Shown here: one piece after another, positions 4,101 through 62,916 of the stretch
Layout: each line of letters opens with the position of its first letter
Numbering within the stretch: position 1 is the first letter of the stretch
Assembly: GCA_035251445.1 (NCBI GenBank)
Contig: DATFEG010000070.1
Location: 3,563 to 67,562, forward strand
Direction: 5' to 3'
DNA from: Gemmatimonadales bacterium
Lineage (GTDB): Bacteria > Gemmatimonadota > Gemmatimonadetes > Gemmatimonadales > GWC2-71-9
DNA: 64,000 nt
Program-made: the position numbers and the translations under genes
The notes under the pieces: model-generated
Seen by the model: the letters and a program-made list of their open reading frames with translations, nothing else
The model's database searches: none
Told to the model about the DNA's origin: nothing

Positions 4101-4856
4101 CTACGCTAGCTCTTCAAAAGAACGGATGCGAGGATGCCCCCCCCCGCCCCCCGCGGCCTCGACGCGCGTCTCGGACTCGCGCACGCACAGGACCGTGCGC
4201 AGCCCCGCTTCCCGCGCCGCATCGAGCTCGGCCGGGACGTCCGAGACGAACAAGACGTCGCGCGGATCCTGATGTAACTCGCTCGCGATGAGCCGATAGC
4301 TCTGCGATTCCCGCTTCGGGCCTGTCTTGGTATCGAAATAGTCGTAAAGAAACGGGGTGAGGTCGCCGGCCGTGCTATTGGCGAACAGGTTACGCTGCGC
4401 TGGCACGCTTCCGGAAGAAAAGATCGCGATGATGATACCGTTGCGGCGCCACCGCACAAACGCGGGCCGGACGTCGTCGTAGACTTCGGCCTTGCCTTTC
4501 AGCTCACCGCCATGATAACCCTCATCCCAGATCTTCCCCTGCAGCGACTTCAATGCGGTCGACTTGCGATCGTGGTCCATCAACCAGTACACGTACGCTT
4601 CGACGGAGCCCAGCTCGTTGGCGTGGTCCCACGCCGGCAGTCCCGCCTGGCGGGGCGGTTCGGCGAGGTGCTCGGCGCGCAGCGCCGCAATGTCCGACAC
4701 GACGCCCGGATCGGTGGCGTGTTGCTCGAGATACTCACGAACACGCGCGCGCGCGTAGGGAAACAACACCTGATGGACGAACGCGACGGGCGTAGTTGTC
4801 CCCTCGATGTCCAGGAGAATTGCGCGGGGAGTGGGAGGGGTGCTCAGCGTCGGCAA
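4101..4856 (-). CDS. mtnC: Enolase-phosphatase E1 (acireductone synthase), methionine salvage
   Basis: The ILLDIEGTTTPVAFVHQVLFPYAR motif and HAD fold identify it. I place the start at the TTG at 4856, directly after the mtnD stop (TGAATTG). The longer 371-aa track ORF upstream is R/S-rich junk that overlaps mtnD. Confidence 0.8.
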   Translation of the reverse strand: MPTLSTPPTPRAILLDIEGTTTPVAFVHQVLFPYARARVREYLEQHATDPGVVSDIAALRAEHLAEPPRQAGLPAWDHANELGSVEAYVYWLMDHDRKSTALKSLQGKIWDEGYHGGELKGKAEVYDDVRPAFVRWRRNGIIIAIFSSGSVPAQRNLFANSTAGDLTPFLYDYFDTKTGPKRESQSYRLIASELHQDPRDVLFVSDVPAELDAAREAGLRTVLCVRESETRVEAAGGGGGHPRIRSFEELA

Positions 4857-15973: not shown

Positions 15974-18694
15974 ATGACCGTCATCCCGAGCACGCCCGCC
16001 TGCGTCCGCGTTGCGCTGCTTCTCGCGAGTGCGCTTCCTGCTTCCTTAGTATCACAGAATATCCACTCGGTGCCCCCGCCTGAAGTCCGTGCTGTGTCCT
16101 TGCCAGGAGGAATCGATCTCGACGGCCGGCTCGCCGAGTCCATATGGCAGCTCGCGCCGGCGGCGACGGCATTCCGGCAGGCCCAGCCCAATCAGGGGGA
16201 GGCTGCGACCCAACGCACCGAGGTGCGGTTCACATTCGACGAAGCCGCCATCTACGTCGGTGCGCGCATGTACGACGATTCCGGCGCCGCCGGCGTGCGC
16301 ACGCGCCTCGCGCGACGCGATGCCGACATCAGCACCGATTACATCCAGATTATCTTCGACACCTACCACGATCATATCGGCCGTCTGTTCTTCTCGGTCA
16401 ATCCGTCCGGCGTGAAGCAGGATGCGAACGGCCTCGGTGGCGGGAGCGATCTCTCGTGGGATCCGGTCTGGGAGGTCCAGACCAACATCGATTCGCTTGG
16501 TTGGACCGCGGAGATGCGCATACCGTTTTCCCAGCTGCGCTATCCGGCGACGTCCGATGAGCAAACATGGGGTCTGCAGATCTGGCGCCAGGAAAACAGG
16601 CTGAACGAATTGTCGCAATGGGCGTGGTGGGGATTGGACGAAGCCGGTGGCCCGCCCCGCTTCGGCCATCTTCAGGGGCTGGTGATTCGTCAGGCTCCGG
16701 GCCGCGGCGAGGTCCTGCCCTATGTGCTTGGACAGGCCGCGAACGCCCCGGGCGACGCGGCTGATCCGTTCTACGATCCTAACGCCATCGACGGCCGCGT
16801 CGGCGGCGATGCGACCTTGCGGGTCACGTCGAATCTCACGTTGAACGCCACGGTCAATCCCGATTTCGGCCAGGTCGAGGTCGATCCGGCCGTCGTGAAT
16901 CTCTCGGCATACGAAACGTTTCTGCAGGAGAAGCGCCCGTTCTTCGTGGAAGGCGCCGGGTATTTCGGACTCGGTGGACTGAACTGCTACTTCTGCTCGA
17001 ATGTGTCGAGCCTCAGTATGCTCAACACCAGGCGCATCGGTCGCGCGCCGCAGATCTCGCCATGGCGTGCCGGGCTGACTATGCCCGTGGAGTACGCGGA
17101 TCCTCCACAGAACTCCACGATCGTCGGGGCAGGGAAGCTCACCGGGCGCACCCCCTCGGGCTGGTCGCTGGGTGTCCTCGAGGCCGTGACCAAGCACGAG
17201 CGCGCGCCGGTCCAGCTCGAGGATGGCACGCGCGGCACCTTTACCGTCGAGCCGCTGTCCAATTACTTCACGGCACGCGTCGCCAAGGACACACGGGGTG
17301 GCGCCACCCAGTGGCGGGCGATGGCGACGTCGCTCTATCGAAAACTCGATGACCCGTATGTGGCAAGCCGGCTGACGCGAAACGCGGAAGCCATCGGCCT
17401 GGCGACCGACAGTTGGTGGAGCAGTCGAACGTACCGATTGATGGCGCAAGTCGCCGCGACACATGTGCACGGCGACACCGCCGCGATGCGCCTGATCCGA
17501 TTCGGGTCGGCGCACTACTTCCAGCGACCCGATCGACCCGACACCGCCGACGCGCGGGCGCCGCGCACCGGAATGTCGGGACTCGGCGGCTTCGCGCGAG
17601 TCTCGAAGGAAGCTGGTCACTGGCTCTGGGAGGTCTCGACCAATTTTCGAACGCGATCATTCAACAACAACGACGTCACATTCTTTAACCGTGCCGACTA
17701 CTGGTGGATGTCCGCGAATCTCTTCCCACAGTGGACCAAGCCGAGCAGCTGGTACCGGCAGCTGTACCTGATCGGCGGCGCGCAACAGCAGTACAACTTC
17801 GACGGCGATCTCACCGACCGGCAGTATCACGCATTCGCCCAAATGCAGACACTGAGCTACTGGTGGCTGACGACGTACTGGATCCACCGGCCCGAGTTGT
17901 TCGATGACCGGCTCACCCGTGGCGGCCCGGTCGTGAGGCGGCCGGCCATCCATTACGTTTTCGCGGGCGTGAACACCGATCAGCGCAAGAAGATCGCCGC
18001 GGAATTCGGCGCGGACCGGGGCTGTAACACCGAGGGCGACTGCAACGAGTCGGTCTTCCTGCTACTGCGCTTCCAGCCGCGTCCAAACGTCGCACTCTCG
18101 TTGGGGCCGTCTGCCAACCGCCAGGAAACTGGCTTCCAATACGTCACCAGTTACGCAGATCCCACCGACGCGGTCTTCTACGGACGGCGCTACGTCTTTG
18201 CGCATTTGGACCAGCAGAATCTGTCTATGGACACGCGGTTGAACTGGACGTTCTCACCGGCCCTCACGCTCGAGCTCTTCCTGCAGCCTTTGCTCGCTTC
18301 CGGCAATTACACGCGGTACAACGTTTATGCCGCGCCGCGGTCGGCGCAGCGGCTGGAGTACGGGAAAGACTTCGGCACCGTAGAGTCGACGCCGGCCGCA
18401 GAGCCCGAGCGCGATCCCGCCTCGATCACCGTCGATGCGGATACTCTGGGCGGGGGCGCGCCGAGCAATACATTCGACGACCCGACATTCACGCTCCGCT
18501 CGCTTCGAGGGAATGCGGTGCTCCGCTGGGAATACCGGCCGGGTTCGACACTGTACGTCGTCTGGACACACACGAGCCAACTTCCCGATCTGCCGCGCGG
18601 CCAAGTCGATTTTAGCCAAGACGCGCGCGCGCTGTTTCACGGTCCGTCGGAGAACATTTTTCTCCTGAAAGTCAGTTACTGGCTGGGGTTCTAG
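15974..18694 (+). CDS. Secreted CBM9-like / DUF5916 protein
   Basis: 906 aa with a signal peptide. IDLDGRLAESIWQLAPAATAFRQAQPNQGEAATQRTEVRFTFDEAAIYVGARMYD is typical of the CBM9/DOMON-like N-terminus that precedes DUF5916. Confidence 0.75.
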   Translation: MTVIPSTPACVRVALLLASALPASLVSQNIHSVPPPEVRAVSLPGGIDLDGRLAESIWQLAPAATAFRQAQPNQGEAATQRTEVRFTFDEAAIYVGARMYDDSGAAGVRTRLARRDADISTDYIQIIFDTYHDHIGRLFFSVNPSGVKQDANGLGGGSDLSWDPVWEVQTNIDSLGWTAEMRIPFSQLRYPATSDEQTWGLQIWRQENRLNELSQWAWWGLDEAGGPPRFGHLQGLVIRQAPGRGEVLPYVLGQAANAPGDAADPFYDPNAIDGRVGGDATLRVTSNLTLNATVNPDFGQVEVDPAVVNLSAYETFLQEKRPFFVEGAGYFGLGGLNCYFCSNVSSLSMLNTRRIGRAPQISPWRAGLTMPVEYADPPQNSTIVGAGKLTGRTPSGWSLGVLEAVTKHERAPVQLEDGTRGTFTVEPLSNYFTARVAKDTRGGATQWRAMATSLYRKLDDPYVASRLTRNAEAIGLATDSWWSSRTYRLMAQVAATHVHGDTAAMRLIRFGSAHYFQRPDRPDTADARAPRTGMSGLGGFARVSKEAGHWLWEVSTNFRTRSFNNNDVTFFNRADYWWMSANLFPQWTKPSSWYRQLYLIGGAQQQYNFDGDLTDRQYHAFAQMQTLSYWWLTTYWIHRPELFDDRLTRGGPVVRRPAIHYVFAGVNTDQRKKIAAEFGADRGCNTEGDCNESVFLLLRFQPRPNVALSLGPSANRQETGFQYVTSYADPTDAVFYGRRYVFAHLDQQNLSMDTRLNWTFSPALTLELFLQPLLASGNYTRYNVYAAPRSAQRLEYGKDFGTVESTPAAEPERDPASITVDADTLGGGAPSNTFDDPTFTLRSLRGNAVLRWEYRPGSTLYVVWTHTSQLPDLPRGQVDFSQDARALFHGPSENIFLLKVSYWLGF

Positions 18695-18742
18695 GGAGCA
18701 GGGAGCAGGGAGCAGGGAGCACGGAGCAGGGAGCACGGGAGC
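18694..18742 (+). repeat. Tandem heptanucleotide array, consensus GGGAGCA: 6 good units plus 1 degenerate unit
   Basis: Read directly: GGGAGCA x4 (18694-18721), CGGAGCA, GGGAGCA, CGGGAGC. It starts on the last base of the TAG stop of the upstream gene. Confidence 0.9.
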
Positions 18743-18793
18743 GGGGAACCTGTTAGCGTTTCTACGTAGAAACTGCTCCGTGCTCCGTGCTCC
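18716..18793 (+). other. Long inverted repeat (19/20 bp arms) built from the heptamer, enclosing a perfect 16-bp palindrome
   Basis: The left arm GGAGCACGGAGCAGGGAGCA (18716-18735) pairs with the right arm TGCTCCGTGCTCCGTGCTCC (18774-18793) with one mismatch. The loop contains GTTTCTACGTAGAAAC (18758-18773). The structure ends 3 nt before the GAGG Shine-Dalgarno of pirin. Confidence 0.8.
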
Positions 18794-18805
18794 TTTGAGG
18801 TGATA

Positions 18806-19720
18806 ATGTCGATCCGTGCCGTCAAATCAATCTCGCAGTCCCAGCTTACCCTCGAAGGCGCGGGCGTCCGTCTCCGCCGGGCGTTCGGGTTTGGACGCAC
18901 CAACGACTTCGATCCGTTCCTGCTCCTCGACGATTTCCGCAACGAGCATCCTGAGGACTATCTCCCGGGATTCCCCTGGCATCCGCATCGTGGCATCGAG
19001 ACGATTACCTACGTCCTGGCTGGCAGCGTCCAGCACGGCGATAGCCTCGGTAATCGCGGCACCATGGGTGCCGGTGACGTGCAGTGGATGACCGCGGGGA
19101 GTGGGATTCTCCATCAGGAAATGCCGAGAGGGGACGACCGGGGCCGCATGCACGGCTTCCAGCTCTGGGCCAACCTGCCGCGCTCGCTCAAGATGACGGA
19201 CCCTCGCTACCAGGACATCCACGCCACGGATATTCCCGAAGTTGTAGATGACGACGGCACACGCGTGCGCGTCGTCGCCGGGGACTTCTGGGGGAAGACG
19301 GGCCCTGTCGAAGGAGTCGCGGCCGACCCCCGCTACCTCGACATCTCGATTCCGCCGCACGTGCGCAAGACGATTCCGGTCGAGGCGTCGCGCCATGCGT
19401 TCGCCTACATCTTCGAGGGCGGCGGCACCTTCCGCGATGCGTCGGCGGCGCAGGGTGTGCAGACCGATCGCGTGTCCGCGGGCGGCCGCGACGCGGGAAG
19501 CGAGAGCGCGACGGAAACCGGGAATCGGTCGCTGGTGCTGTTCGACTCGGGCGATGAAATCACGGTGCAAGCGGGCGAACAGGGTATGCGCTTCCTGCTC
19601 GTGTCGGGCAAACCGCTCGAGGAGCCGGTGGCCTGGCAGGGGCCGATCGTCATGAACACGCCGGACGAGCTGCGTCAGGCCTACGACGAACTGCGCCGCG
19701 GAACTTTTATTAGGCGTTAA
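18806..19720 (+). CDS. Pirin-family protein
   Basis: Motifs FPWHPHRGIETITYVLAGSVQHGDSLGN and WMTAGSGILHQEMP. I prefer the ATG at 18806, preceded by GAGG; the track gives a GTG at 18800. Confidence 0.9.
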   Translation: MSIRAVKSISQSQLTLEGAGVRLRRAFGFGRTNDFDPFLLLDDFRNEHPEDYLPGFPWHPHRGIETITYVLAGSVQHGDSLGNRGTMGAGDVQWMTAGSGILHQEMPRGDDRGRMHGFQLWANLPRSLKMTDPRYQDIHATDIPEVVDDDGTRVRVVAGDFWGKTGPVEGVAADPRYLDISIPPHVRKTIPVEASRHAFAYIFEGGGTFRDASAAQGVQTDRVSAGGRDAGSESATETGNRSLVLFDSGDEITVQAGEQGMRFLLVSGKPLEEPVAWQGPIVMNTPDELRQAYDELRRGTFIRR

Positions 19721-25548: not shown

Positions 25549-28500
25549 ATGGCTTCGGCGCGCAGGAAGGGAGACGCGAAGGGAAGTGCGAAGGGAGACG
25601 GGCGGACCTCAACGCCCGTGCCACGCGAGCCGATCGCCCCGCCTGCCGGTGCCCCCACCCCCAGTCAGCCTTTCGAGAACGTCGCCCCGGACGGGCTGCG
25701 CCAGCCGTCGCTGCCATTCCCGGTCGTGTGCGTAGGCGCCTCGGCGGGGGGCCTCGAGGCTTTCACGCAGCTGCTCGAGGCCACGCCCACGAACACCGGC
25801 ATGGCGTTCGTACTCGTCTCCCACCTTTCCCCTTCCCACGCCAGTCATCTCGCGGAGATCCTGTCGCGGGCCACGCGCATGCCCGTGAACGAAGTCAAGG
25901 ACGAGCCCAAGGTCCAGCCGAACCGGGTCTATGTCATCCCTCCCGATCGCAGCATGATCATTTCGGGCGGTGTGCTCAAGCTGCTGCCGCGACGCGAGGT
26001 CCGGGGTCAGCACCATCCCATCGATCTCTTCCTCGAATCCCTCGCCGAGGACCAGCAGAACAAATCGATCGCGGTGATCCTGTCCGGAACCGGGAGCGAT
26101 GGGACAGCGGGACTCGACGAGATCAAGGCCGCCGGCGGCATCACCTTCGCGCAGGACCAGACCGCAGCCTACGAGGGCATGCCGCGGAGCGCGACGATGG
26201 CGGGATCGGTGGATTTCGTCCTTCCGCCGGCCGGGATCGCGATGGAGCTGGCGAACATCGCGCGGCACGCCTACGTGTCGCCGGAAGGGCCGCTCGCGCA
26301 GCCGCCGCCGGCCGAGACGGCGCACTTCACGCAGATCCTGAATCTGCTGCACCAAACGATGGGTGTGGATTTCCACCACTACAAGACCACGACACTCATT
26401 CGCCGCATCGTGCGGCGCATGGCGCTTCACAAGCTCGACGCGCTCGCCGAATACGCCGAGTTTCTGCGCTCCCGCCCCGCCGAGATCGAAGCGCTGTTTC
26501 AGGATATCCTCATCAGCGTCACGTCGTTTTTCCGCGATCCGGAGTCGTTCGAGCTGCTGAAGACCAAGATATTTCCGCGCGTCACAGCCGAGCGTTCGAT
26601 TGGCGACGCGATCCGCATGTGGGTAGTGGGCTGCGCGACGGGCGAAGAGGCGTACTCGGTCGCGATCGCCTTCTCGGAGTTCATGGAGCGCGAAGGGCGG
26701 GTCTGGCCCGTGCAGATCTTTGCCACCGACTTGAACGGCGCCGGCGTCGAGCGCGCGCGAGGCGGACTCTATCCCAAGAGCATCTCCGAGCGTGTGTCAC
26801 CGGAGCGGCTGCGGCGCTATTTCTACGAGGTGGACGGCAAGTATCGAGTAGCGAAGTCCATTCGCGACATGTGCGTCTTTGCCAAGCATAACATCGTCGC
26901 CGACTCACCGTTTTCGCGCATGGATCTGATCAGCTGTCGCAACCTGCTCATCTATCTCGAGCCCGTGCTGCAGCAGCACCTGATGCCGATCCTCCATTAT
27001 GCCCTGAAGCCGAGCGGCTTTCTGTGGCTCGGCGCATCGGAGACGACCGGGAAATTTCGCGACCTGTTCGACGCCGATGACGCCAAGCATCGTTTCTACA
27101 TCAAGAAGCCGAACGCCGCACGCATGCCTGTGCCGCTGCCCATCCGCGGGCCCAGCGAGCGGGGCACGCAGGCGGAACTGCCGGTCAGTCAGGGACGGCG
27201 CGGCGAGGAGGTGCAGCGCGAGGCGGATCGCATTCTGCTGTCGCGCTATACCCCGCCAGGTGTGCTGGTGACCGACGATCTGGACATCCTGCAGTTCCGG
27301 GGTGATACAGGGCCCTACCTCGCTCCGGCGTCCGGACGCGCGTCGCTCAACTTGCTCAAGATGTTGCGGGAAGGTTTGCTGCTGCCGGTGCGCACCGCGA
27401 TAGCGCGCGCCAAGCGGGAAGGGAGCGCGATCCGGACAGACGACGTCCGTGTGAAATCCAACGGCGGCTGGCGACTCGTCGACCTCGAGGTCGTTCCGGT
27501 CAAAGTGTCCGGGACCGAGCGCAGCTGTTACCTGCTCCTGTTTCACGAGCCGCAGATCCAGCCCGAGCGTCTTCCGAAACCCGAGTCGGTCACCAACGCC
27601 GAGGTGGAGCAGGAGACGACGCAGCTCAAGCAGGAGCTGACCGCCACCAAGGAATACCTGCAATCGGTCATCGAGCAGCAGGAGGCGGCCACCGAGGAGC
27701 TGCAGGCGGCCAATGAGGAGGTCCAGTCGGCCAACGAAGAGCTGCAGAGTATCAATGAAGAGATCGAGACGTCCAAGGAAGAGATCCAATCGAGTAACGA
27801 AGAGCTGGCGACGGTCAACGAGGAGCTCCAGACCCGCAATGCCGAGCTGGGGCAGAGCAACAACGACCTCATGAATCTCCTCGCCAGCGTGCAGATGGCG
27901 ATCGTGATGCTCGGCGCCGATCTCCGCATCCGCCGCTTCACCCCGATGGCGGAGAAGATGCTGAACCTCATCGCGACGGACGTCGGGCGGCCGCTCACCG
28001 ACATCAGGCTCAATTTCGATGTCCCCGATCTCGAGAAGATCCTCGGGGAAGTCCTCGAGACGATCCAGCCCTACCAGCGGGATGTGCAGGACAGGAACGG
28101 ACGCTGGCACTCGCTGCGGGTGCGCCCATACCGCACGCTCGAAAACCGCATCGACGGCGTGGTGATCGTCCTGGTGGACATCGATTCGGTGAAGTCGACA
28201 GCCGAATCGCTGCGCGTCAGCGCCGAGCGGCTGCGAATCATGTACGACCGCGCGCCCGTGGGGATTTTCGAAACCGATCTCGAGGGACGGTTCACCCGAG
28301 TCAACGATATGTTCTGCCGTCTGACCGGCCGCTCGCGCGAAACGCTGCTCGCGCTGCGATCGGAAGACATCACCCATCCCGACGATATCCTTGCGGAACG
28401 CGAGGATTACCATCGAATTCGGAACGGCGCGACGGCCTCCGTGCGCCGGGAGAAGCGCTACCTGCGCGAAGGGGGCGAGCCGGTCTGGGTCGAGGTGCAC

Positions 28501-30102
28501 CGCTTCAGCATTCTGGACGCGCAGGGACGAGCCGAATTCATGGTTGGCATCGCCCAGGATATCGGGGAGCGCAAGGAAACGGAGACGACCCTGCGCCGTC
28601 GCGAGGCGCGCTTCCGCGCCTTGATGAACAGCACGCCGGTGCTCATCTGGGCCAGCGGCGTCGAGGGGATGGAGTACGTGAATCAGGCATTCCTCGAATT
28701 CCTCGGCGTCGAGTCACAGGAGGTGCTGGGCGACGCGTGGACTTACTACCTGCATCCCGATGACCGCGAGGCCGCTCTCGCGGCCTACGACCGCGCGCGG
28801 GCGACGTTGCAGCCGTTCGAGCAGCAATTCCGCTTCCGCCGGGTGGACGGGGAATACCGCTGGATGATGGCGGTTGCCCTGCCGCAGTTCGGCGCGGCTG
28901 GAAAGTTTTCGGGCTACGCGGGTGCCACCTTCGACATCACCACCCTCAAGGAGGCCGAAGAGAGCTTACGCACGGCGGACCAGCGGAAGGACGAGTTCAT
29001 CGCGATGCTTGCCCACGAGCTGCGAAACCCGCTCGCGCCGATCACGAACGTGGTCCAGATGCTCAAGTCATCCAATCTCGATACGTCGACGCTCGATTGG
29101 GCCCATCAGGTGCTGGAGCGACAACTCCGCAATCTGGGACGCATGGTGAATGATTTGCTGGACGTTTCTCGTATCAGCCATGGGAAGATTCAGCTCCAAC
29201 GCGAGCGCGTGGAGCTCAACGAGCTCATTGACCGTGTCATCGATACGGTCCGTCCCGCGATCGAGGCAGGACAAAAGCAGGTCACCATCGAGTTTCCCAC
29301 CGCGCCCGTCGTCCTTTTTGCCGATCCGGTGCGGCTCGAACAGGCAATCGGGAACCTGGTGCACAACGCCCTCAAGTTCACGGCGCAGGGCGGGCATATC
29401 GCCGTCCGCGCGACGACCGACGGGGCCGCGGGCAAGGCCGGGGAAGTCATCATCACCGTTCGGGACGACGGTGACGGTATATCGGCCGACGCGCTGCCGC
29501 GCGTATTCGATCTCTTTATGCAGGTCAACACGTCGCTGGACCGGGCGCAGGGGGGATTGGGGATCGGCCTCAGCCTGGTGCGTGGGCTCGTGGAATTGCA
29601 CGGCGGCACCGTCGAGGCAAAGAGCGACGGAAACGGGTTGGGCAGTCAGTTCACTGTGCGGTTACCGCTGGTCGAGATCCCGGCGACCCCCCCCCGGCAG
29701 CCCGTGAAGCGGGGCGACAATGGTCCTAAAAGCATTCTCGTTATCGACGACAACATGGATGCCGCGAATGCGCTCGCGGCGCTGCTGCGACACGACAAGC
29801 ATACCGTGAGCGTGGCCCATTCGGGCGTGCAAGGCTTGGAGATCGCGAATCGACTGCGTCCCGATGTCGCGTTGGTCGACCTGGGGATGCCCGGCATGAA
29901 TGGCTTCGTGGTCGCGGAGCGGCTCCGTGCCGCCGGTCACACCGAGACGCTCCTTGTCGCAGTCAGCGGCTACAGCGGCGAAGAGCCGCGCAAACGCGCC
30001 CGCGATGCCGGCTTCGACGAATACGTCATCAAACCGTTCGACGCGCAGGCCTTCGAAGAGCTCCTGAGCCGCCAGGCTAGCAGTCCTCGCGCGTCCCGCT
30101 GA
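25549..30102 (+). CDS. CheB-methylesterase / CheR-methyltransferase fusion linked to coiled coil, PAS domains, HisKA-HATPase and a receiver (hybrid sensor kinase)
   Basis: 1517 aa. Order of elements: VVCVGASAGGLEAF (CheB); TSFFRDPESFELL and CATGEEAYS (CheR); an EELQAANEEVQSANEELQSINEEIE coiled coil; PAS; FIAMLAHELRNPL (H-box); GGLGIGLSLV (G2 box); ILVIDDN...LVDLGMPGMNG (REC). Confidence 0.9.
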   Translation: MASARRKGDAKGSAKGDGRTSTPVPREPIAPPAGAPTPSQPFENVAPDGLRQPSLPFPVVCVGASAGGLEAFTQLLEATPTNTGMAFVLVSHLSPSHASHLAEILSRATRMPVNEVKDEPKVQPNRVYVIPPDRSMIISGGVLKLLPRREVRGQHHPIDLFLESLAEDQQNKSIAVILSGTGSDGTAGLDEIKAAGGITFAQDQTAAYEGMPRSATMAGSVDFVLPPAGIAMELANIARHAYVSPEGPLAQPPPAETAHFTQILNLLHQTMGVDFHHYKTTTLIRRIVRRMALHKLDALAEYAEFLRSRPAEIEALFQDILISVTSFFRDPESFELLKTKIFPRVTAERSIGDAIRMWVVGCATGEEAYSVAIAFSEFMEREGRVWPVQIFATDLNGAGVERARGGLYPKSISERVSPERLRRYFYEVDGKYRVAKSIRDMCVFAKHNIVADSPFSRMDLISCRNLLIYLEPVLQQHLMPILHYALKPSGFLWLGASETTGKFRDLFDADDAKHRFYIKKPNAARMPVPLPIRGPSERGTQAELPVSQGRRGEEVQREADRILLSRYTPPGVLVTDDLDILQFRGDTGPYLAPASGRASLNLLKMLREGLLLPVRTAIARAKREGSAIRTDDVRVKSNGGWRLVDLEVVPVKVSGTERSCYLLLFHEPQIQPERLPKPESVTNAEVEQETTQLKQELTATKEYLQSVIEQQEAATEELQAANEEVQSANEELQSINEEIETSKEEIQSSNEELATVNEELQTRNAELGQSNNDLMNLLASVQMAIVMLGADLRIRRFTPMAEKMLNLIATDVGRPLTDIRLNFDVPDLEKILGEVLETIQPYQRDVQDRNGRWHSLRVRPYRTLENRIDGVVIVLVDIDSVKSTAESLRVSAERLRIMYDRAPVGIFETDLEGRFTRVNDMFCRLTGRSRETLLALRSEDITHPDDILAEREDYHRIRNGATASVRREKRYLREGGEPVWVEVHRFSILDAQGRAEFMVGIAQDIGERKETETTLRRREARFRALMNSTPVLIWASGVEGMEYVNQAFLEFLGVESQEVLGDAWTYYLHPDDREAALAAYDRARATLQPFEQQFRFRRVDGEYRWMMAVALPQFGAAGKFSGYAGATFDITTLKEAEESLRTADQRKDEFIAMLAHELRNPLAPITNVVQMLKSSNLDTSTLDWAHQVLERQLRNLGRMVNDLLDVSRISHGKIQLQRERVELNELIDRVIDTVRPAIEAGQKQVTIEFPTAPVVLFADPVRLEQAIGNLVHNALKFTAQGGHIAVRATTDGAAGKAGEVIITVRDDGDGISADALPRVFDLFMQVNTSLDRAQGGLGIGLSLVRGLVELHGGTVEAKSDGNGLGSQFTVRLPLVEIPATPPRQPVKRGDNGPKSILVIDDNMDAANALAALLRHDKHTVSVAHSGVQGLEIANRLRPDVALVDLGMPGMNGFVVAERLRAAGHTETLLVAVSGYSGEEPRKRARDAGFDEYVIKPFDAQAFEELLSRQASSPRASR

Positions 30103-30108
30103 AGCGGG

Positions 30109-30873
30109 ATGCTCGCCCTGATCGTGGTCCTCGCCCAGGTGGCGATTCCACCGCCGCGCGGCTTCGTCAACGATTTCGCCGGCGTGCTCGACTCCGCATC
30201 GATCGCGCGCATGGACCGGGTCTTGGCGGAAGTACGAAGCGCCACGCGGGGCGAAATCGCGGTCGTCACCCTTCCCGATATCGGGGGACGTGCAGCGAGC
30301 GACGTGGCGGTGCGGATCGGCCGCCAGTGGGGCGTCGGGGCAGCGGCGGAAGCGGGCGATCCCGCCAAGAACCTGGGCGTCGTCGTGCTCCTGGTGCCGC
30401 GCAAGGATCACCAGCCGGGCACGGGCGACATCTTCATCGCGACGGGGCGGGGTGCCGAAGGCTTTCTCACCGACGCAGCCGTAGGACGCATTCGCGACGC
30501 GATGCTGCCACTCCTGGCGCAGGAACAGTACGGCGCCGGGTTGTCGCTGGCCGTCGATCTCATCGCCCAGGCGTTCGGGCAGGAGTTCGGCGTGACGCTC
30601 ACCACTCCAGAGTACGTGCGACCGCCGCCCACCGCGCGTCCCAGCGCTCCGATCCCGATCGGATTCATCATCATCGTTGTCGTGCTGCTGATCATTCTGA
30701 CTCGCGGCCGGATCTTCTTGCTACCGCTCCTGCTCAGTGGCCGGAGCGGCGGCTGGAGCAGCGGCCGAGGTTGGGGCGGAGGAGGGTGGGGCGGTGGGAG
30801 AGGTGGCGGCGGATTTGGTGGCTTTGGCGGGGGCGGTGGCTTCTCAGGAGGCGGGGCTGGGGGGAGATTCTGA
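30109..30873 (+). CDS. TPM-domain (YgcG-like) protein with a transmembrane segment and Gly/Trp-rich tail
   Basis: Contains PPPRGFVNDFAGVLDSASIARMDRVLAEVRSATRGEIAVVTLPDIGG, and the C-terminus is GGGWGGGRGGGGFGGFGGGGGF. Confidence 0.85.
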   Translation: MLALIVVLAQVAIPPPRGFVNDFAGVLDSASIARMDRVLAEVRSATRGEIAVVTLPDIGGRAASDVAVRIGRQWGVGAAAEAGDPAKNLGVVVLLVPRKDHQPGTGDIFIATGRGAEGFLTDAAVGRIRDAMLPLLAQEQYGAGLSLAVDLIAQAFGQEFGVTLTTPEYVRPPPTARPSAPIPIGFIIIVVVLLIILTRGRIFLLPLLLSGRSGGWSSGRGWGGGGWGGGRGGGGFGGFGGGGGFSGGGAGGRF

Positions 30874-30874
30874 T

Positions 30875-31546
30875 ATGGCGCGAATCTCGGCGGACCAATT
30901 CGGGGAACGGCTCAGTGCGGCTCTCGGCGGCCGGCTGGTGACGCTGGTGCTCTATGGCTCGGCTGCGAGAGAGCACGGAGCACGGAGCACGGAGCAGACG
31001 GGCGTCAACACATTGCTCATTGTCGACCGGATTGACGCCGACGTCTTTGACCAGATCGTCGCAACCGTGGGCGAGTGGATGAGCGCCAAGCACCCGGCGC
31101 CGTTGGTGATGACGGAACAGGAGTGGCGGGCCTCGGCGGACGCCTTTCCCATCGAATACGACGACATTCGCGCGTATCATCGCGTGCTGGCCGGCAGGGA
31201 TCCGTGGGACGGCATCCGGGTCAAGCGCGAGCATGTGCGCCGCCAGCTCGAGCACGAGCTCAAGGGCAAGCTGATGCACCTGCGGCAGGCCTACGCAGCC
31301 GAGTGGAAGAGTCCCAAGCGCCTGACCGAAGTGGTGCGCGGCACCTGGGCGGGGTTCCTCACGATGTTGCGGGCCGTGCTGCGGCTCGCCGGGCGCGACG
31401 TGCCGGCTTCCGCCGATGCGCTGGTGCGAGACGCCGCCGCACTGATAGGATTTTCCGTGGGGCGATTGAACGAGCCGGTAAGCTACCTCGACGCGGTGAC
31501 GCGCACGGCGCAGTACGTCGACCGCATGGAAAGGACTGCTTTGTGA
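30875..31546 (+). CDS. Nucleotidyltransferase-fold (Pol-beta-like) protein with a helical C-terminal domain. The catalytic loop carries the heptamer array.
   Basis: The ATG lies 1 nt after the TPM stop. It has the LVLYGSAAR...GVNTLLIVD NTase-like core and overlaps lemA as GTGA. The acidic D-x-D motif is not evident. Confidence 0.65.
   Translation: MARISADQFGERLSAALGGRLVTLVLYGSAAREHGARSTEQTGVNTLLIVDRIDADVFDQIVATVGEWMSAKHPAPLVMTEQEWRASADAFPIEYDDIRAYHRVLAGRDPWDGIRVKREHVRRQLEHELKGKLMHLRQAYAAEWKSPKRLTEVVRGTWAGFLTMLRAVLRLAGRDVPASADALVRDAAALIGFSVGRLNEPVSYLDAVTRTAQYVDRMERTAL
30970..30997 (+). repeat. Tandem heptanucleotide array GAGCACG x3 plus GAGCAGA, inside a CDS
   Basis: Read directly. It is the same heptamer family (GGAGCAC/GGAGCAG) as at 18694-18793, and it encodes EHGARSTEQ. 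Confidence 0.85.
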
Positions 31547-32118
31547 ACGCGCAAACACCTCGCGTTGGCCCACTGCTCAGCATGGCGCTCGCGCTGGTCG
31601 CGGGCTGTGGCTACAACACGATTCAGACGCTCGACGAGAAGGTCAATTCGGCCGAGTCACAGATCAAGGTTCAGCTGCAGCGGCGCGCCGATCTCATTCC
31701 GAATCTCGTCGAGACCGTCAAAGCGTATGCCCGGCAGGAGGAGACGATCTTTACGCAGGTCGCGGAAGCGCGCGCGAAGCTGGCAGGTGCGGTCCAAAGT
31801 GGAAACCTCGACTCCATGGCGGCCGCCAATGCGGCTCTCACCGCGCCATTGGGCCGTCTGCTTGCCATCGCGGAAAACTATCCGCAGCTCAAGTCGAATG
31901 AGAACTTCCGGGCTCTTCAGGATCAGCTCGAAGGAACGGAGAATCGCATCGCGGTAGCCCGACAGGATTACAACGAAACGGTGAACACGTACAACGCCTA
32001 CATTCGGCGTTTTCCACAGGTGCTCACGGCCAAGGTTCTCGGAAAAAAGGCGCGATCCTACTTCGAATTGCAGACACCGGGAGCGGCGGAAGCGCCGCGA
32101 GTCGACTTCTCGCGCTAG
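31543..32118 (+). CDS. LemA-family lipoprotein
   Basis: The GTG overlaps the upstream TGA. It has the lipobox LVAGC, then NTIQTLDEKVNSAESQIKVQLQRRADLIPNLVETVK, ENYPQLKSNENF and ARQDYNETVNTYN. Confidence 0.9.
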   Translation: MNAQTPRVGPLLSMALALVAGCGYNTIQTLDEKVNSAESQIKVQLQRRADLIPNLVETVKAYARQEETIFTQVAEARAKLAGAVQSGNLDSMAAANAALTAPLGRLLAIAENYPQLKSNENFRALQDQLEGTENRIAVARQDYNETVNTYNAYIRRFPQVLTAKVLGKKARSYFELQTPGAAEAPRVDFSR

Positions 32119-32156: not shown

Positions 32157-32585
32157 ATGCCACGAATTGAAGCGAGCCCACTCGAGCGACACCGTGCCGC
32201 CAGCGCGGTCTCGGAACGGGACGCAGCCAAGCGCTGTCTCGTTGCCATCATCGAGGATGATACCGAGTTCCGGAATATGCTGCGCGAGCTGCTCGAAGAG
32301 GAGCAGTACCGCGTCGTCGCGGTATCCAATGGTGCCGAAGCCCTCGAAACGCTCCGCGGCAACACGGTGCCCAATGTCATTTTGCTCGACGTGTCGATGC
32401 CCGTGATGGACGGCTTCGATTTTCTTCGCATCCGAAACGATGATCCGCGCCTCGCGCAGGTTCCCGTCGTGCTCGTGACGAACGCCAAGCCGCACGAGCG
32501 CCCGACTGTCGGCGTCAACGATGTCGTCCGCAAGCCGATCGACATCGACGAGATTCTGTTCGCAATCAAGCGCTACTGCGACTGA
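32157..32585 (+). CDS. Stand-alone receiver-domain response regulator
   Basis: 142 aa, with VAIIEDDTEFRNML and ILLDVSMPVMDGFDFL. It has no output domain. Confidence 0.85.
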   Translation: MPRIEASPLERHRAASAVSERDAAKRCLVAIIEDDTEFRNMLRELLEEEQYRVVAVSNGAEALETLRGNTVPNVILLDVSMPVMDGFDFLRIRNDDPRLAQVPVVLVTNAKPHERPTVGVNDVVRKPIDIDEILFAIKRYCD

Positions 32586-32631
32586 TCGTTGATCATCGAT
32601 CATTGATCATTGATTAATGATCATTGATCAT
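32583..32631. repeat. Seven tandem heptamers, consensus TGATCAT (palindromic core TGATCA, six GATC sites), followed by T6
   Basis: Read directly: TGATCGT TGATCAT CGATCAT TGATCAT TGATTAA TGATCAT TGATCAT, then TGTTTTTTG. The array begins at the TGA of the response-regulator gene and supplies the last codons (MINDH*) of the convergent kinase gene. Confidence 0.9.
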
Positions 32632-33846
32632 TGTTTTTTGCGGGCCTCGCGGCAGCGTAAAGAAGAATGTCGTGCCCTCCCCGGATCGACTCTCGACCCA
32701 GATCCGGCCACCCAGTGCCTCGACTACTCCCTTTGCAATCGTCAGCCCCAGGCCGCTGCCGAGTCGCGCTTTTGGCGTGGCCTGCCAGAAGCGATCGAAT
32801 ACGTGGGGCAGCTGCTCGGACGAAATGCCGATGCCGCTGTCCCGGACGGAGAACACCACCTCGTCGTCGAGTCGCTGCGCCGTAACCTGCACCGATCCAC
32901 CGTCCGGCGTGAACTTGATCGCGTTGCCGATCAGATTACCCAGCACCTGGAGGACGCGCTCGCGGTCGCACACGACATCGATCCCGTCTGCCACGTTCTG
33001 CTCGATACGCAGCGACCTGTCGCCCGCCTGAACCTGACAGGCCGCCACGGCCTCCTCGATGATCGGCCGGACGGGCTCGCGGAGCGGCTCCACAAAGAGC
33101 CGTCCCGCTTCGATGCTCGCGACATCGAGCAAGTCGCCGATCAGCCGGTTCATCCGCTCGGCAGAACGGCGAATCGCTTCGACGTGGCGGCGGTCGCGGC
33201 GGCCTTCGTCATCGGGGGGTAGGCTGCGCAGCAGCAGGCCGACCGCCGTAAGAACGGTGTTCAGGCCGTTCCGGAGATCGTGCGAAATGGCGGCGAGCGT
33301 GTCGTCGCGCGCGCGACTCGCCTGTCGCGCCTGTTGGTACAGGCGGGCGTTGTCGGCGCCCAACGCGGTCCGTTGTGCGATGTCCTCGAGCTTTGACAGA
33401 TCGCTGCGCGAGAACGTGCGGTCGGGCCGAGTCATTGCGAGCGTCAATACACCGAGCAGGCGCCCTCGTCCAATCAGTGGGAGCAGGACGAGCGAGCGGA
33501 TGCCCGCGGCGCGAATGGCTGCCTGGCCGGAGGGATCTGTCGTGATGGCGCCGAGCGTTGAGGCCGTGAGATCGGGAATGAGCAGCGTCTCGCCGGCACG
33601 AAGGCTGGGCGTCGGCACCAGGTGCCAGTCGTCTAGCGAGTTATCCACGCGTTGCACGGATCCGTCGTCGTCGATGACATCGACGAGACAGACGTCACCC
33701 AGGCGGGGCACCACCAGACGCGCGACCCCTGAGAGCATCGCCCGCTCGTCCAGCGCCGAGGCGAGTATCTCGGCGAGGTTCGACAGGAAGCGTTGCTCTT
33801 CGGCATCGGCTTTCGCGACCCTTGGCGTGCTGCTCTTTACTTTCAC
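32614..33846 (-). CDS. GAF-domain sensor histidine kinase
   Basis: 410 aa with an N-terminal GAF-like region, [13 protein letters not shown] (H-box), [11 protein letters not shown] (N-box) and [13 protein letters not shown] (G2). Confidence 0.9.
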
Positions 33847-56068: not shown

Positions 56069-57363
56069 CGATGCGCCGAATGCTCTGCTTGGCACTTCTG
56101 CTTGTCGCCTGCGCGGAACTTCCCCCAATTCCCACAGTCACCGAACTCCAGCCGTTTCGCGCAACCACAGACGTTTGGAGCGGAAGCTCGGTCAGGATTA
56201 CCTCAGCAGCCTTTGCGGGTGCCGCCTCGCCTCCTGCCGTGTTGCTCGATCAGTTGCCGCTCGAAGCGCGTCGCGTTGACGACACGACACTCATCGCGTC
56301 GATTCCCGAAGCTCCAGGGCCGCACTACCTCCGTGTCGTCGCCAAGAATGTCGATACTGCTTCCATCATCGTCTATTTGCGCGGATTCGTGCAGCACGTC
56401 GAAGGACCCTTCCTCAGCGGTCGGGTCGAATCGGGCCGCGATCCACGCCATGTCTTCGGCAATGGCCCCACCAGCCTGCGCCGCTGGAATATCGCGACGA
56501 ACAAAGCGATCGATTATGCCGACAGTCTGCACGCGGTCACTTGCACGCGTGGCGTTGGACCCAGTCCGACCGCCGGCGATCTCGCACTTCTGACCGGGGG
56601 CTGTACCGCCGGCACCTGGATGGTCTGGCATCCCGAGCCGTTAGCTGCAACCGATACGACGTCGGTCGCCGTCACAGACTTCGTCGCGGTCTTGCGAACG
56701 GACCGCTGGATCGTGCTCAACAACGGCTTGTTCTCGCTCGTGGCGTGCGAGTCGGCGACGGTCTGTACCTCGGAAGCCATCGCCGGTCTTGTGGGCACCG
56801 ACGTGATGCGCTCACCGCGCGGTGATCGCGCCGCGCTACTCGGGCGCCGTGCCGGCCCGGGCGGCCCGGGCGGCCCGGGGCCGACAAATGTCATACCCGT
56901 CGTCGATGTCGCTGGCGGCGCGATCGCGTATCACGTGCCGCCGCTCTCTGGAGTGCAGGGTGCGGCTTTCACTCCCGAAGGCGACACGCTCTTTCTCGCG
57001 GGCGACTCCGCGGGAGCACCGGCACTCGCAGCCGTCCTCGCGGCCGATGGCGCACGGCTCGCGACGCGCACGCTTGCCCTTTCGCCGTGCGCGGTGGCGG
57101 CCGACGGCGCGCAACGCTGGCTGTACGTCGCCGGCCTGGTGACACTGGCCGCGGACACGACATCGGTGTTGCAAGTCCTCGATCGTGCAACGCTGAACGT
57201 GATCACGACCCTGCAGGTTACGGGAGCCGACGGGTACGACGGCAAGCGCTGCCGCATCGTGCAGAATCCGATCGAAAGTCGAGTCTACGTGGTGGCCACC
57301 TGGGCGGGAGAACACAACCCCGCCGTTCACGCGCAATTGTACAGCTTCGAGACTCCCCGCTAG
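56065..57363 (+). CDS. Lipoprotein, probably beta-propeller-like
   Basis: Lipobox LLLVAC and repeated strand-rich segments. The start overlaps the upstream stop. I recognise no firm family. Confidence 0.6.
   Translation: MTMRRMLCLALLLVACAELPPIPTVTELQPFRATTDVWSGSSVRITSAAFAGAASPPAVLLDQLPLEARRVDDTTLIASIPEAPGPHYLRVVAKNVDTASIIVYLRGFVQHVEGPFLSGRVESGRDPRHVFGNGPTSLRRWNIATNKAIDYADSLHAVTCTRGVGPSPTAGDLALLTGGCTAGTWMVWHPEPLAATDTTSVAVTDFVAVLRTDRWIVLNNGLFSLVACESATVCTSEAIAGLVGTDVMRSPRGDRAALLGRRAGPGGPGGPGPTNVIPVVDVAGGAIAYHVPPLSGVQGAAFTPEGDTLFLAGDSAGAPALAAVLAADGARLATRTLALSPCAVAADGAQRWLYVAGLVTLAADTTSVLQVLDRATLNVITTLQVTGADGYDGKRCRIVQNPIESRVYVVATWAGEHNPAVHAQLYSFETPR
56853..56879. repeat. In-frame 9-nt tandem repeat CGGCCCGGG x3
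   Basis: Read directly. It encodes GPGGPGGPG inside the lipoprotein. Confidence 0.85.
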
Positions 57364-62849: not shown

Positions 62850-62897
62850 CCGAGCCGCGGCTTCAGCCGCGCTCCGAGCCGCGGCTTCAGCCGCGCT
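62850..62897. repeat. Perfect 24-nt tandem duplication
   Basis: CCGAGCCGCGGCTTCAGCCGCGCT occurs twice, read directly. Each unit contains the palindrome AGCCGCGGCT. Confidence 0.9.
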
Positions 62898-62916
62898 CGC
62901 CGTCCTGCCTAAACCC

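Follow-up and report, generated by a model that had tools for sequence, protein, structure and literature searches.

A perfect heptanucleotide array in a nucleotidyltransferase-like gene of Gemmatimonadales, probably the homogenised copy of an old coding microsatellite

Does a perfect tandem repeat of a seven-nucleotide unit, lying inside a coding sequence of a Gemmatimonadales bacterium, switch its gene on and off? The repeat occupies positions 30971-30996 on the forward strand of the 64,000-nucleotide stretch of DNA analysed here (hereafter the window) and reads GAGCACG GAGCACG GAGCACG GAGCA. Tandem Repeats Finder describes it as 3.7 copies of the unit GAGCACG with a period of 7 and 100% matches. 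In the register used by the gene family, the array becomes GGAGCAC GGAGCAC GGAGCAG, and its residues, Glu33 to Gln41, are EHGARSTEQ, in the context LYGSAAR-EHGARSTEQ-TGVNTLLIVD. Our translation of the surrounding stretch, LYGSAAREHGARSTEQTGVNTLLIVD, agrees with that given in the initial annotation, which had been made from the letters of the sequence.

Short low-complexity tracts are numerous in GC-rich genomes, and the array might be taken for an artefact of chance or codon usage, in which a Gly/Ala/Ser/Glu-rich peptide from a high-GC genome only looks periodic. That reading is already refuted, and we leave it next to no probability. None of 300 third-order Markov simulations of the window attained a perfect period-7 tract of at least 21 nt, the longest being 20 nt, and the codons of the array, AGG, GGA and GGG, are the non-preferred ones. 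The window itself contains two perfect period-7 tracts of at least 26 nt, namely the coding array and an intergenic array at 18694 whose unit it matches. GGAGCA[CG] dimers are restricted in the window to 18695-18736 (forward strand), 18773-18793 (reverse strand) and 30970-30997 (forward strand), amounting to 10 matches against 0.2 expected. The heptamer repeat recognised at the outset is therefore real, and so is its kinship with the element at 18694-18793.

Phase variation had been proposed for this array on the grounds that gain or loss of one unit would shift the reading frame. The frameshift itself is borne out by simulated alleles: two units lead to a 66-aa product and four units to a 55-aa product, while alleles with 0 or 6 units, which have three units fewer or more, keep the frame. 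Such an arrangement recalls neuO of E. coli K1, an O-acetyltransferase gene of the CUS-3 prophage with a heptanucleotide AAGACTC repeat in its 5' coding region. The two are alike in that a 7-nt unit lies within the coding sequence and permits read-through only at a frame-keeping unit number, and in that translation of the unit in its three frames yields a peptide repeat of 7 residues. If the Gemmatimonadales array were a contingency locus of this kind, slipped-strand mispairing of the heptamers would switch the gene on and off, and through translational coupling it would switch the downstream lemA gene as well.

The gene that carries the array begins at the ATG at 30875, which is its true start, and ends with the stop at 31546 on the forward strand. 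According to the open reading frame list, the homologues, the structural model and Foldseek, it encodes a 223-aa protein with a nucleotidyltransferase (NTase) fold and a C-terminal helical domain. Upstream lies a gene for a TPM-domain protein (30109-30873, forward strand), whose TGA stop precedes the NTase-like ATG by 1 nt, and downstream lies lemA (31543-32118, forward strand), whose GTG start overlaps the NTase-like stop in the sequence GTGA. The family can be split into a close clade at 61-100% identity and a distant, or sister, clade at 46-61% identity. The TPM-domain gene adjoins the NTase-like gene in 81 of 81 close-clade and 35 of 41 distant-clade loci, and lemA does so in 105 of 105 and 40 of 46, respectively. 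A literature search for LemA together with the TPM domain found no relevant paper, and the TPM, NTase-like and LemA genes constitute an uncharacterised, strictly conserved trio in Gemmatimonadales. Other repeats are found in the genes that precede the trio's central member: overlapping repeats of 12 and 15 nt encode a Gly-rich tail, GGWGGGRGGGGFGGFGGGGGFSGGGAGG, at the C-terminus of the TPM-domain protein (30735-30870). At 25549-30102, with the pirin region on one side and the TPM gene on the other, lies the gene for a 1517-aa CheB-CheR-PAS-histidine-kinase-receiver fusion with 21/42-nt units at 27658-27833 that specify an (EELQxxNEE)n coiled coil; this gene is missing from its window position in two related loci, L002 and L167.

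More than 1100 homologues of the 223-aa protein exist, mostly of about the same length, and those with names come from Gemmatimonadales and bear the annotation hypothetical protein. The window protein had no hit in Pfam and no meaningful one in NCBIfam. It remains below the gathering score of PF01909 (NTP_transf_2), while distant homologues score 14.7-20.5 bits against that family's threshold of 21 bits, over the region from G-S to D-x-D. A profile search of PDB sequences with the protein returned no match, and the fold search alone was informative. From 44 homologues, AlphaFold gave a confident model (pLDDT 89.4, pTM 0.80) that comprises an N-terminal alpha/beta domain (strand 21-27, helix 29-32, strand 45-50) followed by a C-terminal helical bundle. 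Foldseek matched this model to PDB structures of ANT(9), AadA, Hailong HalB and MNT antitoxins with a probability of 1.0 and E-values from 2.5e-5 to 1e-3, and the elements of the NTase fold (beta1, the G-S turn, the helix and beta2) are all present in it. These matches, together with the sub-threshold PF01909 hits over the same region, show that the NTase-like label and the placement of the loop are right.

Within the model, array residues 33-41 form a coil between the Gly28-Ser29 turn with its helix (29-32) and strand beta2 (45-50), and residues 35-41 are the sole internal segment with a pLDDT below 50. The repeat thus occupies the loop between the G-S motif and beta2, in the position of the catalytic loop, as had been deduced initially. 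The hG[GS] motif is present, with Tyr27, Gly28 and Ser29 (codons of the latter two at 30956-30961) invariant among the 44 aligned homologues, and so are Asn45 (31007-31009), Thr46 and Leu47. The acidic residues of NTases had been reported as absent, and indeed no canonical D-x-D or [DE]-h-[DE] was found on beta2 of the window protein, where G-V-N stands instead; the corresponding position reads x-x-M/V-N in the close clade and S-D-V-N in the sister clade. Glu83, also invariant among the 44 homologues, is a candidate for the third catalytic carboxylate, which NTases carry on a later strand and which in AadA, for example, is Glu87. Catalysis by the NTase-like subunit is probably altered or lost. 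Its array loop is predicted to be structurally unconstrained, given the low pLDDT and a length that varies by whole codons only.

Compared with ANT(9)/AadA, HalB and the MNT proteins, the window protein shares the predicted fold and the invariant hG-S motif, and its repeat lies in the loop that leads into the strand normally bearing D-x-D. It differs from them, however, in having no D-x-D, no Pfam hit and no sequence-level match in the PDB, and it is encoded in a TPM-X-LemA context and not among resistance, defence or toxin-antitoxin genes.

The proposed switch was then confronted with orthologous loci, 80 from species-representative genomes and 80 from metagenomes, to which more were added by exact-protein look-ups. 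Loci were retrieved by peptide patterns downstream of the loop, so that frameshifted alleles would still have been retrieved, and the loop was mapped by tblastn. No out-of-frame allele was seen at any of the 160 loop-spanning loci, each of which has one frame and a single tblastn HSP; two homologous loci that do not span the loop start at a contig end. Unit number does not vary among the close relatives either (window, L001-L004, L083 and L163-L166). L002, L003 and L083, at 93-95% identity, read GAGCACG GAGCACG GAACACG GAGCAGA and keep four units, and L004, at 92% identity, keeps four units with two substitutions. Likewise, neither unit-number nor out-of-frame variants occur among the listed members of the 22-member cluster at 90% identity, one member of which is present on 21 contigs. 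The members listed are 223 aa long except for P0123 (180 aa) and P0127, a 261-aa call designated 'partial' by NCBI that extends upstream of the start.

Two 180-aa proteins, P0123 and P0094, were considered as OFF alleles that restart at Met44. They were rejected as such, both being due to contig ends with the array intact and in frame: the contigs behind P0123 begin 15-30 nt upstream of the array, and that of P0094 begins inside the gene. Positions 1-60 of L163-L166 belong to four independent sister-strain metagenome contigs that all start 15-30 nt upstream of an intact array, which suggests assembly breaks near it. Two irregularities were noted elsewhere in the family: at 10001-10639 of L081, two overlapping matches (residues 4-108 and 41-151) indicate a partial tandem duplication or a misassembly, and L033 has a frameshift at about 4638-4650, near residue 184 and far from the loop.

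The notion of phase variation is therefore not supported, as there is no sign of an on/off switch among the assembled loci compared: the 160 orthologous loci and the few more are all in frame, with a constant number of units. We now regard a contingency locus as quite improbable, even though the geometry fits, in that one unit leads to a 55-66-aa product and three units restore the frame, and even though the tract is perfect over 26 nt. It is also true that the same unit has proved unstable in an intergenic array, and that homogenised units specific to single lineages reveal turnover of the coding array on an evolutionary time scale. The benchmark for a real heptanucleotide coding switch is neuO. 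Its array has 3-53 units, with numbers that vary both between and within strains, and 65.6% of 64 complete genomes carry the gene in the OFF state (PMC13001214), whereas the Gemmatimonadales array has a mere 3.7 units in the window, is the same in close relatives and is out of frame in none of about 160 loci. The nearest relatives and sister genomes display decay by interrupting substitutions, not changes of length, no variation is seen in the listed members of the 90% cluster, and the gene is the middle one of three that lie close together in a strictly conserved order.

For slippage, the intergenic array of the same unit provides an internal control. Its unit number varies among the same genomes, and slippage therefore does operate in the lineage on this time scale, although its products are unseen in the coding sequence. 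To call phase variation it does not suffice that a perfect repeat in a 'catalytic loop' is frame-sensitive, and a tempting false positive is removed.

Most of what the initial annotation had named as refuting a switch is indeed observed. The loops of homologues resemble that of the window in sequence and are equal or nearly equal to it in length, with the consensus RE-x-GAGS-x-E-x-x-x-MNTLL. In one respect they depart from that test, for the homologues do carry a repeat at the nucleotide level, so that the array is both ancestral coding sequence and a microsatellite. It is no insertion peculiar to the window genome.

How old, then, is the array? Clades were ordered by UPGMA, which makes statements about them approximate. 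The distant clade has a near-canonical loop, L-Y-G-S-A-A-R-G-T-H-V-P-D-R-S-D-V-N-T-L-L, with at most one GGAGC-type core in each of the 50 distinct loop DNAs. The close clade has lost the Asp that precedes V-N in that loop as well. In its 89 distinct loop DNAs, G[GA]AGC cores number two or more in 51 and three or more in 30, and the motif is entirely lost in 24; the loops measure 11-18 residues between G-S and the invariant Asn and vary by whole codons only. About half of these loops contain a degenerate array of three to four GGGAGCN units that gives E-x-G-A-G-S-x-E. The array of L032, for instance, reads A GGGAGCA GGGAGCC GGGAGCA GGGAGCA GACG, those of L018 and L106 both read GGGAGCA GGGAGCG GGGAGCA GGGAGCC, that of L098 reads GGGAGCA GGGAGCA GGGAGCG GGGAGCA, and L168 has 3.9 copies of GGGAGCG, perfect over 27 nt. 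The consensus peptide, E-Q-G-A-G-S-R/G-E, corresponds to the three frames of the heptamer: because three units make 21 nt, the unit is read in each of its three frames, as E-Q, G-A and G-S-R.

On this evidence the array either is ancestral to the subclade or, at the least, has a very long history there. In the UPGMA order, lineages that bear heptamers are interspersed with lineages in which it has decayed. The unit itself differs from lineage to lineage: it is GGGAGCG in L168, L021 and L167, GGGAGCC in L017, L142 and L114, GGGAGCA in L098, AGGAGCC in L013 and CGGAGCA in the clade of the window. The units evolve in concert, and homogenisation has happened repeatedly. Between the window and L167, which are 88% identical over the gene, 5 of 28 array positions differ, and each difference makes the window units identical to one another.

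The intergenic counterpart of the array lies 12 kb upstream, between the genes for a DUF5916 protein and pirin. According to Tandem Repeats Finder and folding, it is a hairpin with a left arm of 7.7 units of GGGAGCA/GGAGCAC (18693-18747, forward strand) and a right arm of three units of TGCTCCG (18773-18793, forward strand), and the element folds at -60.1 kcal/mol (z = -6.0). The reverse complement of the right arm, GGAGCACGGAGCACGGAGCAG, is identical to positions 30977-30997 of the coding sequence at 21 of 21 nt. Unit numbers of the left and right arms are about 7 and 3 in the window, about 3.5 and 4 in L002, and 4 and 3 in both L003 and L167. The heptamers flank a conserved core hairpin, GGGAACCGGTTAGTGTTCT.GTAGCAACTGGTTCC, in the DUF5916-pirin spacer. 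As they resemble the arms of this core (GGGAACC and TGGTTCC), they probably arose by duplication of its stem.

The core hairpin (18748-18806 in the window, between the DUF5916 stop and the pirin start) is shared by many Gemmatimonadales, among them L011, L019, L022, L026, L030, L089, L101 and L160, and in a few lineages heptamer arrays lengthen its stem. It could be a terminator, or an operator that serves pirin; no family was matched when the whole window, the core hairpin included, was scanned against Rfam.

A dispersed repeat family had been suspected from the two occurrences in the window, and the part of this claim that holds is that the heptamer occurs in tandem at two loci. Across the window and related loci of about 2 Mb in total, all of which sample one neighbourhood, arrays of at least three units are confined to just two syntenic sites, the loop (23 loci) and the DUF5916-pirin spacer (the window, L002, L003, L026, L048 and L142, and also L167). 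The two kinds of array are not co-distributed, since many genomes have the loop array only, and L026 and L048 have the hairpin array only. The sequences thus lend a dispersed heptamer family weak support. The STRR heptamers of cyanobacteria are an example of a dispersed heptamer repeat family. Direct repeats of the heptamer TAACTGA are known from marine Beggiatoaceae and cyanobacteria, with 169 sets in the BOGUAY genome (PMC4679880). Common to the TAACTGA and STRR families and the present case is that one heptamer stands in tandem at more than one locus, for the most part between genes, and that slippage explains copy-number differences among relatives. Those families, however, number tens to hundreds of sets per genome, whereas the window heptamer has two sites in 64 kb, one of which is coding and fixed in length.

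How did the window array come to match the hairpin arm? L167, at 87% identity, has C-variant units in its hairpin while its loop is still of the G type. Taken together with the 21 of 21 match in the window, this makes conversion from the hairpin into the coding sequence the most economical account, and suggests, for this one clade, an ectopic gene conversion.

Overall, the array is a coding simple-sequence repeat in a degenerate NTase-fold protein, of an ordinary kind with an unusual history. We consider it probable that it is an old coding microsatellite in the form to which the window lineage has homogenised it, with its frame fixed and without an on/off switch. Extrapolating from present-day sequences, at the base of one Gemmatimonadales subclade the canonical catalytic loop would have been replaced. 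The old loop presumably resembled R-G-T-H-V-P-D-R-S-D-V-N, in which the second Asp had already been lost to Asn, and about four tandem GGGAGCN units would have taken its place, the outcome being a loop rich in Gly, Ala, Ser and Glu, for which the model predicts disorder. The tract would now be ordinary coding sequence in the NTase-like subunit of the conserved TPM-X-LemA cluster. Selection would remove gains and losses of units and so keep its length fixed, while point substitutions would slowly degrade it and occasional homogenisation would restore perfect runs. Such homogenisation could come from the array itself, through slippage or conversion, or from the similar hairpin in the intergenic spacer, through conversion. 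G-type units would in this way have become CGGAGCA units in the lineage of the window, most parsimoniously by conversion from the right arm of the hairpin.

A point against this account of an old, homogenised microsatellite is that homogenising at constant length requires either conversion or transient frameshifted intermediates, and the latter would amount to a slow form of switching. If the account is correct, the locus is a clear instance of a non-triplet microsatellite that became a protein loop and has persisted there, still recognisable as DNA across species that are 30-35% apart in protein sequence.

The codons of the loop raise the further question as to whether the repeat is maintained as protein sequence or as nucleic acid. 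Codon usage was assessed in 33 distinct loops, chosen only by their peptide motif, against the gene-wide background. Arg32 is encoded by AGG or AGA in 19 of 33 (background 2%), the first Gly by GGA in 27 of 33 (background 23%) and the second Gly by GGG in 20 of 24 (background 20%). By contrast, the synonymous N position, which is the third base of the Ala codon, drifts (17 G, 7 C and 5 A), as do other invariant Gly and Arg codons in the 33 sequences; Gly107, for example, is GGC in 11, GGG in 8, GGT in 7 and GGA in 6. The only other fixed AGG codon of the gene is that of Arg220, a rare codon found in 32 of 32 orthologues (31532-31546 in the window comprises it together with the lemA start), and its purine-rich surroundings, immediately before that start, are, in our reading, the expected site of the lemA Shine-Dalgarno sequence. 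The GGA codon of Gly192 (31448-31450), present in 30 of 32 orthologues, has no obvious reason.

The synonymous sites of the GGGAGC core are thus far more conserved than neutral coding sequence would be expected to be, and the view that the array is just a loop leaves this unexplained unless homogenisation is frequent. The conservation could reflect homogenisation alone or a function at the nucleic-acid level. Under the latter alternative, the GGGAGC repeats would be kept for their nucleic-acid function and merely tolerated by the coding loop. Candidates for such a function are a run of Shine-Dalgarno-like GGAG motifs that causes ribosome pausing or initiation at a following ATG, a G-quadruplex, a protein-binding site, and a pairing partner for the complementary arm of the hairpin RNA upstream of pirin.

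The drift of the N position and of other invariant Gly and Arg codons speaks for this alternative, as does the fixed AGG of Arg220 at the expected lemA Shine-Dalgarno site. Moreover, the codon after the array is ATG in 74 of 89 close-clade loops, a canonical G4 motif is present in 22 of 89, and the complementarity between loop and hairpin arm extends over 21 of 21 nt. We nevertheless find a nucleic-acid role unlikely. RNAalifold detected no conserved structure among 21 heptamer-bearing orthologues (-7.9 kcal/mol, with a covariation term of about 0), the single-sequence fold of the window is unexceptional (z = -1.8), most genomes with a heptamer loop have no hairpin array, and the close-clade loops that have lost the motif entirely (24 of 89) do without it. 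Recurrent homogenisation could, in addition, mimic such constraint.

Two of the candidates were rejected for the window itself. An internal start after the array is disfavoured there, the codon being GTC, which is not a start codon, despite the ATG of most relatives, and the window loop is not a G4 motif, despite those relatives in which it is.

A fuller version of the same idea holds that the array is a conserved cis-acting nucleic-acid element in a loop freed from catalysis, with ectopic conversion keeping its intergenic twin alike. It may act by tandem Shine-Dalgarno-like pausing or internal initiation, as an RNA or DNA G-quadruplex, or as a partner of the hairpin in pairing or recombination. 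We give this version a similarly low chance. If it were true, one short motif would be under dual selection, as protein and as nucleic acid, across many Gemmatimonadales species; and should the conservation at synonymous sites reflect function and not homogenisation, the locus would exemplify a protein code and a nucleic-acid code that overlap.

The window contains a further heptamer array with another unit. At 32583-32639, directly after the stop of a response-regulator gene and followed by T6, 7.3 copies of TCATTGA/TGATCAT with palindromic TGATCA cores stand between convergent genes and fold as a hairpin of -32 kcal/mol (z = -4.2). It resembles an intrinsic terminator, built here of a heptamer repeat. 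Perfect short tandem repeats are also present at 62850-62898, where a 24-nt unit occurs twice, and at 56853-56879, where CGGCCCGGG occurs three times.
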